Notes: generated from the letters alone by a model not told the origin. Shown: positions 1 through 64,000, counted from the stretch's first letter. The stretch is 64,000 nucleotides of DNA from Paraspadella gotoi (GCA_051294375.1 CM119265.1:27162517-27226516), one strand, 5' to 3'. A program made the numbers and translations.

Positions 1-3000
1 CACGGCGCCTCTCTCTTCTTGCGAGAAGGCGTAGCCGGAAGAGGAAGAGGGAGCTTCTGCTTGATCCCCGCCAGATCCGTGTGGCCGGAGAATCTTGGAT
101 CCTTTGGAAACGATCGTCCTCGCCAAGAGCCCCGCCCGCTCGGAGAGAGAGAAGGATCCTCGCGCGGCTTTGGAGACGACGTCGCTGGGATCTTGATTGG
201 CCAGCTCCTCGTCGAGAACTCTCTCCGGCAGCGTCTTGTCGAAGGTGCGTTTGGCGACGCGGATAACGAAGTCCAGCGAGAGGCTGGCGATCGGCACCAT
301 GGGCAGGCAGACCCAGAAGATTCCGCTCCGCATGACGGATTGAAAAACTCCGTGAATCTCCGAAGCGACGGGCACGACCGGCCAGAGGTTGGAGTAGACG
401 GAGAGAAAGAAGAACCAGACGACGATGGATCCCCAGATGGCCAAGTGGGTCATCGCCGTCCACGAGGTCGTCTCCAGGAGAGCCTTGCCCGAAACGGTGA
501 CCACGGTGAAGGAATAGACGAGATTCCCCACAAAGGCCAACCCGCCCGTCTCGCCGTCGCCGTAGGCGGCGTCGTTGCGGCAAGCCAATACCGTCAGCCA
601 GAAGACGATCATGCTGTGGTAGACGCCGAAGATGCACCAGATCCAAAAGACCCTCACGTTGAAGAGGGAGGATGATTGGGAGAACTTGTAGAGCTGCGGG
701 AAGCGGAGCATGTTCTTCTTAGAAAACTGACGGTCGAAGAGGCCGAGTGCGACGGGAGGCGCCGCGGTGAAGACGACGTTGTAGAGAGCGATCGTCCACC
801 GATCGAAGAGGACCTGGGCGCTGAACCCGGAGATCATCCCGAACCAGACTTCGATGATGTAGAGGGTGATGTTCTTGTAGAAGCTGAAAAGGATGCATTT
901 GCAGAGTCTCGAGTAGTTCCAGGCGCCGTGGACGAGAAGGAGATGCTTCAGGAAGCGGAACTGCGCGATGGAGTAGTCCGAAGCGCAGGCGGCTTGGAGG
1001 CCTTCTTTGCCGGAGAGGCCGACGCCCACGTGGGCGCTGCGAATCATGCCGACGTCGTTGGCGCCGTCGCCGATGGCCAGGGTGATGCCCAACCCGGCCG
1101 TCTTGACCAGCTCGACCAGTTCGGACTTTTGCAGCGGCGTGGCGCGGCAGCAGATGACGCAGGAGCAGGAGACGGCCAGGGCGAGAAAGTCGCGTCGACA
1201 GTCGCAGGTGAGCGCGTACTTGAGGGTCTGACCGTCGATGACGAGGGCGGATTCTGGACCGAGGGCTCCCTCGCGCTCGCGGAGAGCCTCGCGAGTCGCG
1301 TCCAGGCTGGACTCGTTGAGGATGACCAGGTCCGTCGATCTGTCGATGAGGCGACACGAGAAGCCAACGTTGACGGCCGTCTCTTGACGGTCACCCGTTA
1401 AGACCCAAATCTTGATGCCCGCCGTGAGGAGATCCGAAATGGTGTCGGGGACACCGGCCTGCGGGAAAGTATTAATTATATGATAAATAATATATTATAT
1501 AATAATTATTTAAATAAAAAAGAAGTCGAATTTGTCGATTGAGAAAACAATTTGTGGTTCGTTCCAGAATTTTTTAAAATCTTTTTAAATTTTTTTTGTG
1601 CTAATAGTAATATCGTGCCTCTTTAAAACTATATTTATTCAATAATTTAACAAATAACTTGGCAATTAATTAAATGACATAAATTTTATGACATACATAA
1701 AAAAGCCAGAGCAAATAAACAATTAAATTATGATTCCCTCTCAGAAGCGAAGCAAAATCAAAACATTGCAAATTTGAACACCAGTAAGAGGACATGATTA
1801 AGTCGATTGAAACCAACATAAATCATCCAAAATATCGATCAATGACCCCAATATGTTTAAATATGAAAAGGGTGCAAAATAATTTCTAAACGTGTGTCCC
1901 GAACAATCCTAAAACATTCTTACCATAATATCTAAATAAAATGTGATTGGGTTTTAATAATGAAAACAAAAAAAGAAAAGGTTAGATTGGCAAACAAAAC
2001 AAAACAAAATTTCAAAAGGACTTTAGGCGTGCAAAAAGCTTCGTCCAACTGACCTGCAATTTGTCTTCGATGGCCGTGGCGCCGAGAAGAAAGAGATTAC
2101 GCTCGACTAACTCCGCCGCTTCTTCCAATTTTGTCTCTCGGTTGTGAAGGGAAGTGCTGGCCTTGTAGTAGGTGTGCTTCCAGTCTTCGTACACGTCCGC
2201 CTCGATCTCGGTGTAAGCGACGCAAAGAGTCCGCAGCCCTTCCTGAGCGAACTCCTTCAGATGAAGCATGGTGATGTCGGCGTAGAGCTGATTGTCCGAA
2301 AGCCGCTCGTAGATAACGTTGTCGGCGCCTTTGACGAAGAGTACTATCCGTCCGTCGGGCATCCGCAGAATCACGGACATGCGTCGCCGAGCGCTGGTAA
2401 AGTCCAAGACATTGAGCACTTGGTAGACGACGTCGACGCCGTCCACGTTGACGACGATCTCGTCGGGAAATCGTTGATGAAAACGAAACCCGAGACGAGC
2501 GGCGCCTTTCACCAGCGCCTCCTCGTCCGGCGACGAAGCCTGGTATAGGATTTCCGGAGCGCCGCTGCCGTCGGAACTGATGCTGCCGACGCCGCCGCCG
2601 CCGCCGCCGGAGTCCGGCGACACCGCGGCACCCGGAACCGACTCGCTTCGGCCCCGGAATTCAGGGACAACCGTGTGACAGGTGGAGATGAGCGTTAGAA
2701 ATTCCCTTATCACCGGCGCCGTCACGTGACCGAGTGAGAGATTCTCGCGCAAGGAAGGATCGTCGAATCCGTCTTGACCGTCGCGCGATCCTCCGTAGAC
2801 GAGCCCGGCGACGGAGCATTTTCGAAACTCCATCACGTTGCGAGTCAGAGTCCCCGTTTTGTCGGAGAAGATGTACTTGACTTGCCCCAACTCTTCGTTG
2901 AGATTGGAGGTCCGCGCCACGGCGGGCACGTCGCTCTCAGGGTCGTACATGTCCAAGTCCATGCTGATGAACATTGCCTGGATGAACTTGACCAACTCCA

Positions 3001-61000: not shown

Positions 61001-64000
61001 CAACAACAACAACAACGACGACGAACCTGTAGTAATCGCTCTCGCCGACTCGACGCGTCATCCCGAAGTCGGCGATCTTGACGGTCTTGGCCTCGTCGAC
61101 GAGACAGTTGCGGGCGGCGAGGTCGCGATGGACGCAGTTGATGGAATTGAGGTAGGAGAGTCCCTCGGCGATGTCGAGCGCCATTCGAGTCAGACGTCGA
61201 CGAGAGACGTCGGAGGATTCTGGCTCGTGGCCGGTGATCACCGCCTTGAGAAAGAGAGAGAGAGAGAAAAAAAGAATAAAAAGTTTCTATTTTAGTAATT
61301 TATATTTTAGTAATAGTTAAGTTAGTATCTACCTGCGTGACCAAGGATCGACGTGAGAGCAAAAACGTTCTCACGTCTCCGTGGATCATGAATTCCATGA
61401 CGGTGAGGATCTGGGAGAGGGGGTTGTCGTTGATTTTATTAATCAATTATTATTTTTGAAGTGCAGTTAATTATTGTTAATTATTATCGCACCTGATCGG
61501 CTGGTCTGTCCGACCTCGTACAAACTCCGAACAATTTGACGATGTTGCGGTGCGACAATTGCTTCATCATCTGAAAAACGGAGACGAGTTTAAAGAGAGA
61601 CCTCACCCTTTCAATCTGACTTAACTTACCTGCGCCTCGTAAAGAAAGTCGACCTTCTCCTCGGTCGTGGCGCAGTGGGGAAGAGTCTTGACGGCGACGG
61701 CGACCCAGTGGGCGCCGAGCAACGCCTCTCCGCCGTAAACTGTTGGGAGAGAATCGGCACAAAGTCAGGAGCCAAACGGCACCGCTCTAGATTCACTTAA
61801 GCATTAAGTAATACTGTTAAACTATAAAATTAATCTTCCTATCAGTTGATATATCAATTACTTAATACTTATTACTACTTTAAAAATTATCCATTCATTT
61901 TATTTTATCATATATGACAATTCAAGACCATAAAATGACATAACTGAATTCACGCGGATTCAAAAACAAAACGACTATATGCAAATGAGATTAACGAATT
62001 TTCCAATTCTAATAACCCCGACTCCCTCTCTTCCAGCCCCACCCCGCGCACCTGTCCCGAACGCCCCTCTTCCCAGCGTCCGGTTCATGACGACGTTTTG
62101 TCGCGGCATCTCCCAATCGTCGAGCTCGAGCCAAGTATTCGGCTCCACCCAACCCAGTTTGTGCTTCTCTGAAATCGGAAATTTAATCGAGAGAAATTCA
62201 CGAGTTTTAAAATTAAATAACTGTTGTAGCAACTGGAGATCTCTCGCGCTCTCTCGGTCTGCCGAAAGAGATTTTCGCATTCGTCGATATTCCTTCTCTC
62301 TGCACGTTTGCCTTTTCCTCATTAAAAATCTACCCAATTACCCATGTGGTGTTAAGATATGTAACCATGTCCATTTTATTTTTTAAATTGCCGTTGTTGC
62401 AATAATAATAATAATAATAAAAATTAAATTAAATTAAAACATCTCTGATCAACCTTCGACCGGTATTGACATCCACACCCACGACTGTCCTCACCAGTCT
62501 CTCGCCGCAACCGGCGCAGGTTGCGGTAGAAGCAGACGAAGATTCCGGCGATGGCAACGATGACGACGATGACGACGAAGATGTTGAGGAAGATGATGGT
62601 GTTGGGGCATCCCGGGTCGCGGGGATCGTCGAGGTCGAACCACTCGTCCAGCGGAGAGATCGGACATTCCTTCTCCTTCGGTAGATGAGAGTGGAAGCGG
62701 GAATCGGAGTGAGAAAAGGATCGAAATCGAGACTACTACCGACCGACCGACCTTGAGTAAATCGACGATGGGCGAATGACCTCTGGGCCAACGAATGGCT
62801 CGCTGATCGTCGCCCTTGTCAACGTAGACGACGAGGGACTCTCTCGAGGACGCGTTGTTGTTGTTGTTGTTTTTGTGGCGAGAAAGAGAGTGGGGGAATT
62901 TGTATCGAGCGACTTTGTAATTGTTTGTGGTTTTTTCGTCCTCGATGATCGTCTGCTCGATGAAGACGAGAGTCGCCCGACGATCGGAGGAAACGTCTCC
63001 CTCCGATTGGGGGGACTTGAATGAGAAGAGACAATTAGTTTTTATTATTATTATTATTATTANNNNNNNNNNTATTATTATTATTATTATTATTATGGTA
63101 CGATCAATCAAGACTCATTCACAGTCTCGTTTATTTACTGCCATTGTACCTGGCTTCCCTATCAATGAAGTGGTATAATATTTATTTATAATATTATAAA
63201 TATTATATTATATATATTATACTATTAACAAATAAATAAAATAAGTTATTTTAAATCTAAAAAATAAAAATAATAAAAATGGTGAAACAAGTAATTTCGC
63301 ATCTTTCATTATATTATATTATACTTTATAATATAATATTACATAAGCGGAAACTATGCAACGGTAAAGTTTTAAAGTTATACTAAGTTTTTTAATAAAT
63401 TGCGACTAATCACAAAGAAAAGAACCCCTCACCATTTGCACTCACCCATTCCGCCTCGCTCATCGCCCTCTCTTTCCTCTTTCCCTCCTTCCCGCTCTTC
63501 CTTTCCTCCCCTTCCTTTCCTCCTCCTCCTCCCCCTCCTCTTTCCCGCGCATCGAAGGCAACCTCTCCCGACAACCCACGAAACTTGATCCTCTTCAAAA
63601 ACGCGACGAGGCGTTCGGTGCTCCCCTTGGAATGAATGCGCTCTCGACGGAGGGCGTTGGGCCCGAATTGTCGCTGGTACGCGTCGAGAGCTTTGGCGTA
63701 GACCCAGGTGGCGTCGTAGGCGTAGGCGGCCCATTTGGATTCGGCGATTGGCGGCGATCCGTGAAGGGCGCGTCGCTGGTTGACCTCCTTGATTTTTTTC
63801 CGGTACTCTTCTTTTAAGTCGCCAACCTTGAAAGATTAAAAGGAAATGAGGGGGTGACATAATTGTTTAATAATATTACAATTATTGAATAATTATCATT
63901 TATTCGCCGGCTAACCTTTGTTCCCTTCTTCGTCTTCGGAACGTCGACCTCCGAATCCAATTCAGCGTAGAAGGCGTTGGTAATCTTGAGGCTCCCGCTG
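58093..64000 (-). CDS. VKR: Venus kinase receptor (GABA-B-like Venus-flytrap ectodomain + TM + insulin-receptor-like tyrosine kinase); 5' end off the window
   Basis: VFT motifs [15 protein letters not shown] and [12 protein letters not shown]; Cys-flanked juxtamembrane then [27 protein letters not shown]; kinase [67 protein letters not shown]; tail exons to the stop at 58093. Confidence 0.85.

Follow-up and report, generated by a model that had tools for sequence, protein, structure and literature searches.

Operons of flatworms, chaetognaths, nematodes, and tunicates are the closest described counterparts to the arrangement examined here in a 64,000-nucleotide stretch of DNA from Paraspadella gotoi (GCA_051294375.1 CM119265.1:27162517-27226516), hereafter called the window, in which 17 genes of unrelated families all lie on the minus strand. 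Operons of the flatworm Macrostomum lignano (PMC8629364) and of parasitic flatworms (PMC12582326) are delimited by distance cut-offs of 1000 and 300 base pairs (bp), and mostly contain two or three genes, with a maximum of nine. For the chaetognaths P. gotoi (PMC12460157) and Spadella cephaloptera (PMC2481426), operons are described with distances below 250 bp, leader evidence, and at most nine genes. Indeed, a nine-gene maximum is reported for P. gotoi, M. lignano, and Schistosoma japonicum alike. Operons reach eight genes in Caenorhabditis elegans (two to eight) and six or seven in Ciona, and a nine-gene operon is named for Oikopleura (PMC7986045, PMC8629364, PMC11067885). The published animal operons considered here stem from a few lineages. 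No report of an animal operon exceeding nine genes was found in the literature searched, whose supplementary tables and figures (P. gotoi, Oikopleura) may hold longer examples.

Judged by its gene layout, acceptor-like sites, and transcript contigs, the window appears to work in the manner of these animal operons. As in flatworms, unrelated conserved genes stand head to tail, a putative unpaired acceptor precedes the downstream gene, and of the 16 stop-to-start gaps, 14 fall within the flatworm cut-off of 1000 bp and 7 within that of 300 bp. The window ATP8A protein also shows a weakly supported grouping with a tapeworm and a rotifer. Unlike flatworm operons, however, the window chains 15 genes at 1000 bp, which agrees with the distance part of the Macrostomum operon definition; that definition also has a leader part. 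The chaetognath systems resemble the window as those of a long-branch protostome in which housekeeping and germline genes are clustered on one strand, and applying their 250-bp limit yields chains of 2, 4, and 2 genes when measured from stop to start, a measure that includes untranslated regions (UTRs). Short U-rich spacers and co-oriented housekeeping genes are shared with C. elegans SL2 operons and tunicate operons. In contrast to both, AATAAA is mostly absent from the window spacers, and the SL2 arrangement of an AAUAAA about 100 nucleotides (nt) before the acceptor is not seen; moreover, the tree places the window ATP8A outside the tunicates.

Kinetoplastid clusters comprise tens to hundreds of almost intron-less genes whose messages are all trans-spliced. 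They share with the window a long one-strand run of unrelated genes and a scarcity of canonical polyadenylation signals in the spacers. However, near-absence of cis introns does not describe the window, in which 17 intron-rich genes carry at least 53 modelled GT-AG introns (two were observed spliced in contigs) and two gaps are of promoter size. Being intron-rich, the window does not belong to the kinetoplastid type of cluster. Both ends of the run are located beyond the window.

We favor, somewhat beyond even chances, the interpretation that the window is a chain of operons abutting one another, with spliced-leader trans-splicing as the likely means of resolving them. An operon-like organization is supported by the short gaps, by contigs that extend over two of three gaps tested, and by acceptor-like sites that occur exclusively on the sense strand. 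Shared precursors, a leader, the positions of promoters, and the number of units are what we infer beyond these observations.

The uniform strand assignment reported in the initial annotation was confirmed, as was its statement that the genes are not paralogues. Pfam matches support 16 of the 17 minus-strand genes, 15 of them at E<=1e-3 from 57 selected minus-strand open reading frames (ORFs), with the sixteenth recognized through its own MYND exon. When all stop-to-stop ORFs of at least 55 aa were considered (302 minus-strand, 280 plus-strand), none of the 280 on the plus strand had a Pfam match. Likewise, the best plus-strand coding score from a codon model was at most 28 across 15 non-exonic blocks, compared with 31-103 for eight of nine reference exons; the ninth scores merely 15, so a very small plus-strand exon could escape this model. 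The one gene for which a family search gave no match, a lysine-rich orphan, scores 82 on the minus strand vs 30 on the plus strand. The window is occupied by minus-strand exons and introns at a density of 266 genes/Mb, and the strand bias is specific to genes, because dispersed repeats occur in both orientations. Tandem duplication was ruled out as the cause of co-orientation, since the families differ, and what remains is a series of adjacent, unrelated, same-strand genes as in operons. Most are of housekeeping, ciliary/centriolar, or germline type, classes that are reported for operons (PMC11067885, PMC12460157).

From right to left, the stop-to-ATG gaps measure 1844, 274, 280, 210, 371, 539, 517, 374, 451, 527, 194, 178, 171, 434, 159, and 1284 nt. 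The initial annotation had given sizes of about 160, 180, 195, 210, 275, and 280 bp, with most others under about 550 bp, and these were reproduced to within a few bases; its two long gaps (about 1.8 kb between the Venus kinase receptor (VKR) gene and FITM2, and about 1.3 kb between TBC1D22 and ATP8A) correspond to the first and last values in the series. Fourteen of the 16 gaps are 159-539 nt long, with 7 at or below 300 nt, 11 at or below 500 nt, and all 14 at or below 550 nt, which is the short intercistronic distance expected of operons under published cut-offs of 250-1000 bp. Because these lengths include both UTRs, the real intergenic distances are shorter; for example, in the 434-nt SFI1-B9D2 gap the transcript contigs are separated by no more than 174 nt. 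The 15 genes first proposed as one or a few operons form a single chain by distance only at cut-offs of at least 540 nt (15 genes at both 550 and 1000 nt); at 500 nt they break into chains of 5, 3, and 6 genes, and at 300 nt into chains of 4, 4, and 2. Spacing is closest in three cores: FITM2-RBM34-DECR1-TMCO4, orphan-AATF-HAUS1-SFI1, and B9D2-TBC1D22.

Splice matrices derived from the window (73 acceptors, 58 donors) were used to score the spacers. In 11 of 16 spacers, the best acceptor-like site within the last 200 nt scores at or above the lower quartile of real acceptors; none of the 16 reverse complements attains this level, and among 29 intron-interior windows 31% do (p 0.008). A site located 40-100 nt before the ATG is present in 12 of 16 spacers vs 5.0 in shuffles (P 0.003), although this bin was picked post hoc and mononucleotide shuffles are a laxer control than dinucleotide shuffles. 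Furthermore, 12 of the 14 short spacers carry a site of at least 5 bits with no strong donor upstream within the spacer, by a donor cut-off below which a quarter of real donors fall. The spacers are U-rich, with a T-skew of 0.21 vs 0.09 in intron interiors (p 0.049). Only one of the 14 short spacers, FITM2-RBM34, has an AATAAA where the signal of the upstream gene would sit, and it lies ~155-160 nt before the acceptor. A search of the spacers for a shared promoter or U-rich motif returned only A-rich words near the ATG and nothing specific, and TATA-like matches in 5 of 16 spacers were uninformative.

Transcript contigs were available from a run, X1, that contains 0.56 of the sampled words of 41001-51000, by estimate approximately the exon share, and that is tentatively taken to represent RNA. 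It behaves as RNA on 8100-15110, where record 1 lacks both B9D2 introns, with GT-AG borders. Almost none of the sampled words occur in runs X2 and X3, which gave 0 and 1 short record. The contig test covers 3 of the 16 gaps, all within 8100-15110; a contig across two genes does not show one transcript molecule, and some records were dropped from the contig set. Record 1 (2757 nt, depth 225) begins at 9936 and extends without interruption over the B9D2 stop and the 159-nt spacer into TBC1D22; past the TBC1D22 ATG its letters agree with the next TBC1D22 exon. Beyond 8290, record 1 has 1506 letters against a remaining TBC1D22 coding length of 1362-1386 nt, leaving 120-144 nt, and by this length it probably contains both complete frames. 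Record 6 extends from inside SFI1 across the entire 171-nt HAUS1-SFI1 gap and 58 letters past the stretch examined. Thus, contigs span B9D2-TBC1D22 and HAUS1-SFI1, two of the three gaps tested.

The likelihood of 17 of 17 genes sharing one strand was put at 1.5e-5 in the initial annotation. The arithmetic is right for a blindly picked window, but the figure is overstated for a window chosen for this feature. Per window, this value for independent orientation compares with 0.003-0.03 at 70-80% co-orientation, which makes the run 200-2000 times likelier than at 50%. Simulations of genomes with 12,000-20,000 genes gave a run of at least 17 somewhere by chance in 7-13% of cases with independent orientation, in 35-45% at 55% same-strand neighbors, and in 78-88% at 60%. 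The run therefore points to genome-wide co-orientation and not to one unit. A co-orientation bias in animals usually reflects operons or tandem duplicates. Thus, the run argues for a genome with such a bias and does not require a single unit, and its uniform strand exceeds what compactness alone easily explains.

One alternative, which we consider unlikely but still a serious contender, is that the window consists of single-gene units in a compact genome, each with its own short TATA-less promoter in the spacer or in the 3' end of its neighbor. Overlapping UTRs or leaky termination would then join the contigs, and the run of 17 would be a selected extreme of a distribution that is random or mildly biased, for which the simulated frequencies at random and at 55% co-orientation leave room. 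Several further observations fit this alternative and weigh against a chain of operons. In 11 of 16 spacers, the best acceptor is separated from the start codon by an upstream ATG, a poor fit of those acceptors with mature 5' ends, and some acceptors match up with a donor, as in ordinary UTR introns. Taken one by one, only 4 of 16 spacers score above their own mononucleotide shuffles at P<0.05, and U-rich 3' UTRs alone could raise acceptor scores on the sense strand. In the contigs, no shared non-genomic leader is present among 7 of 18 loose ends at three gene starts. The predicted TBC1D22 and SFI1 acceptors coincide with no contig break or extra depth, and the 5' end of the B9D2 contig falls 34 nt short of its predicted acceptor and carries no leader. 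Contig assembly commonly prunes short leader or poly(A) branches as tips, and a missing leader therefore counts weakly, as contigs neither show nor exclude one. The contigs that do cross gaps could likewise result from overlapping UTRs or slight read-through, which would join neighbors in the same way. The third gap, SFI1-B9D2, contains a 174-nt hole between contigs (9937-10110), but this is no proof of a break because a contig begins exactly at a run of ten T and some records were dropped. Finally, the gene-dense annelid Dimorphilus gyrociliatus resembles the window in gene density and short introns; with 209 genes/Mb, it is described as having no over-represented leaders, no operons, and ordinary promoters (PMC7854359), and a similar density is thus possible without operons.

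Against single-gene units, gaps of 159-210 nt would need to accommodate a 3' UTR, a promoter, and a 5' UTR. Because contigs cover the whole of the B9D2-TBC1D22 and HAUS1-SFI1 gaps, any promoter there would lie within the transcribed sequence of the neighbor, and the likelihood of 17 of 17 is far higher under strong co-orientation, by the factor given above. Repeat insertions, all 13 of which are in introns, the 7.8 kb of gaps being free of them (rough P 0.013), indicate constraint on the gaps but do not discriminate between the models, as this avoidance is expected for promoters and UTRs too. A different alternative, to which we assign little probability, is that the genes are expressed as multi-gene mRNAs that are spliced and polyadenylated but left uncleaved between cistrons, with translation by leaky scanning, re-initiation, or internal entry, as in green algae. 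The deepest B9D2-TBC1D22 contig is fully spliced and unbranched across the spacer, its length fits both complete frames, and AATAAA is absent from most spacers, all of which agree with such messages. However, a contig is not a molecule, this model does not require acceptor-like sites on the sense strand, and such messages are reported as exceptions in animals (PMC4528330). An artefact in which plus-strand genes were missed or the region was misassembled is very improbable. Five short N gaps, apparent indels in TMCO4, and the possibility of very small plus-strand exons could be cited for it, but none of the 280 plus-strand ORFs has a Pfam match, minus-strand exons and introns fill the window, all N gaps lie inside genes or at gene 3' ends, and the contigs match the genome assembly over 8290-15110 with one differing letter.

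For the chain of abutting operons that we favor, the following sequence of events can be proposed. RNA polymerase II would start in a long gap, with 56249-58092 as the best candidate, and perhaps also in some of the 430-540 nt gaps. The polymerase would read through several genes to yield a common precursor RNA, from which each upstream message would be released by cleavage and polyadenylation within the U-rich spacer, mostly without a canonical AATAAA; at the donor-less acceptor ahead of the next gene, splicing would add a capped leader. A more extreme form, which we regard as improbable, is a single intron-rich unit of 15 genes from FITM2 to TBC1D22 (51 kb), or perhaps the whole run, transcribed from one promoter. 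In that case, 3'-end formation would be coupled to the downstream acceptor instead of AAUAAA, resulting in a kinetoplastid-like directional cluster in a protostome that would far exceed the eight or nine genes reported for animal operons. The initial proposal of one or a few very long operons is therefore retained only in part: the operon-like layout stands on the short gaps, contigs, and acceptor-like sites, but a single long unit of kinetoplastid style goes beyond what these data demonstrate.

Table 1. Genes, spacers, and long gaps of the 64-kb window, from right to left
Feature	Position	Strand	Evidence and remarks
Venus kinase receptor-like gene (VFT domain + tyrosine kinase)	58093..64000	-	Pfam ANF_receptor, PK_Tyr_Ser-Thr; stop 58095; 5' part outside window
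VKR-FITM2 gap, 1.84 kb	56249..58092	-	Candidate promoter and chain head, suggested by length alone; possible 95-nt 5'-UTR intron
FITM2-like gene, 8 exons	53667..56248	-	Pfam FIT; open GT-AG model
RBM34-like gene	50447..53392	-	Pfam RRM_1; open models
DECR1-like short-chain dehydrogenase gene	48507..50166	-	Pfam adh_short_C2; open model
TMCO4 gene	45923..48296	-	Pfam DUF726; nearest relatives carry the name TMCO4
Ankyrin-MYND gene, start uncertain	41160..45551	-	Pfam Ank, weak zf-MYND, TPR_2
Ro60 gene	32721..40620	-	Pfam vWA_Ro60; 5' exons assigned visually, no model open throughout
LOTUS/Tudor (TDRD5/7-like) gene	25957..32203	-	Pfam OST-HTH, TUDOR; open model
MDM1-like gene	22811..25582	-	Pfam MDM1; model
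Clarin-like gene	21239..22359	-	Pfam Clarin-2, E 0.001
Lysine-rich orphan ORF, 165 aa	20214..20711	-	Open frame, coding score
AATF gene	17764..20019	-	Pfam AATF-Che1, TRAUB; open model
MYND finger in frame with HAUS1-like coiled coil	15093..17585	-	zf-MYND E 1e-5, HAUS1 E 0.022; open 6-exon model
HAUS1-SFI1 spacer, 171 nt	14922..15092	-	Crossed by unspliced contig; acceptor-like site 71 nt upstream of SFI1 ATG
SFI1-like gene, single exon	10236..14921	-	Pfam Sfi1; covered by contig records 5 and 6
SFI1-B9D2 spacer, 434 nt	9802..10235	-	Covered by contigs except 9937-10110
B9D2 gene	8878..9801	-	Pfam B9-C2; both introns spliced out in contig
B9D2-TBC1D22 spacer, 159 nt	8719..8877	-	Crossed unbroken by spliced contig; donor-less acceptor-like site 129 nt upstream of ATG
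TBC1D22 gene	5472..8718	-	Pfam RabGAP-TBC; open models
TBC1D22-ATP8A gap, 1.28 kb	4178..5471	-	Candidate chain end and new promoter, suggested by length alone
ATP8A phospholipid flippase gene	1..4177	-	Pfam, homologues; 3' end outside window

Some of the gene ends in Table 1 are uncertain. The stop of the Tudor gene is ambiguous (25957 or 25803), that of the HAUS1-like gene adjoins an assembly gap, and the start of the ankyrin-MYND gene and the last exon of the orphan are likewise uncertain. The TMCO4 frame shifts twice within 47147-47230, with apparent indels near 47150-47220 that are probably assembly errors. At 20060-20220, a donor-like site at the orphan stop is followed by an acceptor 69 nt before the AATF ATG, and an extra intron here could bring the end of the orphan to within ~40 nt of the AATF start. 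The orphan is not an AATF exon, as an in-frame stop is present 15 nt before the AATF ATG.

Two genes differ from their neighbors, which are rich in short introns: SFI1 (10236-14921) is intronless across 1561 codons, and ATP8A (1-4177) has a single intron across ~1190 codons. One open six-exon frame at 15127-17585 (minus strand) encodes both a complete MYND zinc finger, in exons 1-2, and a HAUS1-like coiled coil. If the HAUS1 name is right, this would be an unusual fusion, possibly of former operon neighbors; the name is based on a weak Pfam match (E 0.022), and further searches gave no confirmation.

Mobile sequences appear to be present in several introns. A 2-kb element in a Ro60 intron (38040-39997) has terminal inverted repeats of ~375 nt that are 96% alike and no notable ORF, and is likely a non-autonomous DNA transposon. 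Two short dispersed-repeat families, intronic and in both orientations, carry tRNA-like B-box motifs recognized by eye (15504-15739, 16652-16870; 33510-33766, 33968-34226, 29138-29251, 51428-51728, 55074-55131) and are probably short interspersed nuclear elements (SINEs); SINE-like copies lie within Ro60 introns. ARAGORN called no tRNA in the window, including the SINE-like repeats, and no spliced-leader RNA, small nuclear RNA, or tRNA genes were found there, with no notable match in Rfam. In addition, a word of ~20 nt around the octamer ATGCAAAT recurs in introns on both strands (5735, 8266, 26448, 31934, 48885, 58421, 61979), and letters related to the ATGCAAAT word are present in several X1 contigs from other loci. 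This word may be a small mobile element or a binding site.

The best ATP8A matches are mostly from molluscs at 59-64% identity, with no close relative among the 120 + 120 matches listed. In trees built from 58, 25, and 14 of the 240 listed homologues, ATP8A falls among protostomes (support 94-99) on a long branch, grouping weakly (85-87) with the rotifer and the tapeworm. A grouping with the nematode Trichuris was marginally rejected (p-AU 0.041), whereas neither Lophotrochozoa (p 0.16) nor Ecdysozoa (p 0.29) was rejected as a placement. For TMCO4, no close relative was present among 150 representatives, of which 10 were looked up, and a search for synteny gave one candidate metagenome locus, at 37% identity.

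A practical consequence of the gene arrangement is that transcript assemblies of this species fuse neighboring genes. If the run comprises one or two units, then animal RNA polymerase II is able to transcribe across 50 kb of intron-rich genes, and the regulation of germline, ciliary, and metabolic genes can pass to RNA processing. If it instead comprises several ordinary operons, the window would add an operon-rich genome from a lineage that has no close annotated relative, as the identities of its best matches suggest, and this outcome would bear on how often trans-splicing arose.

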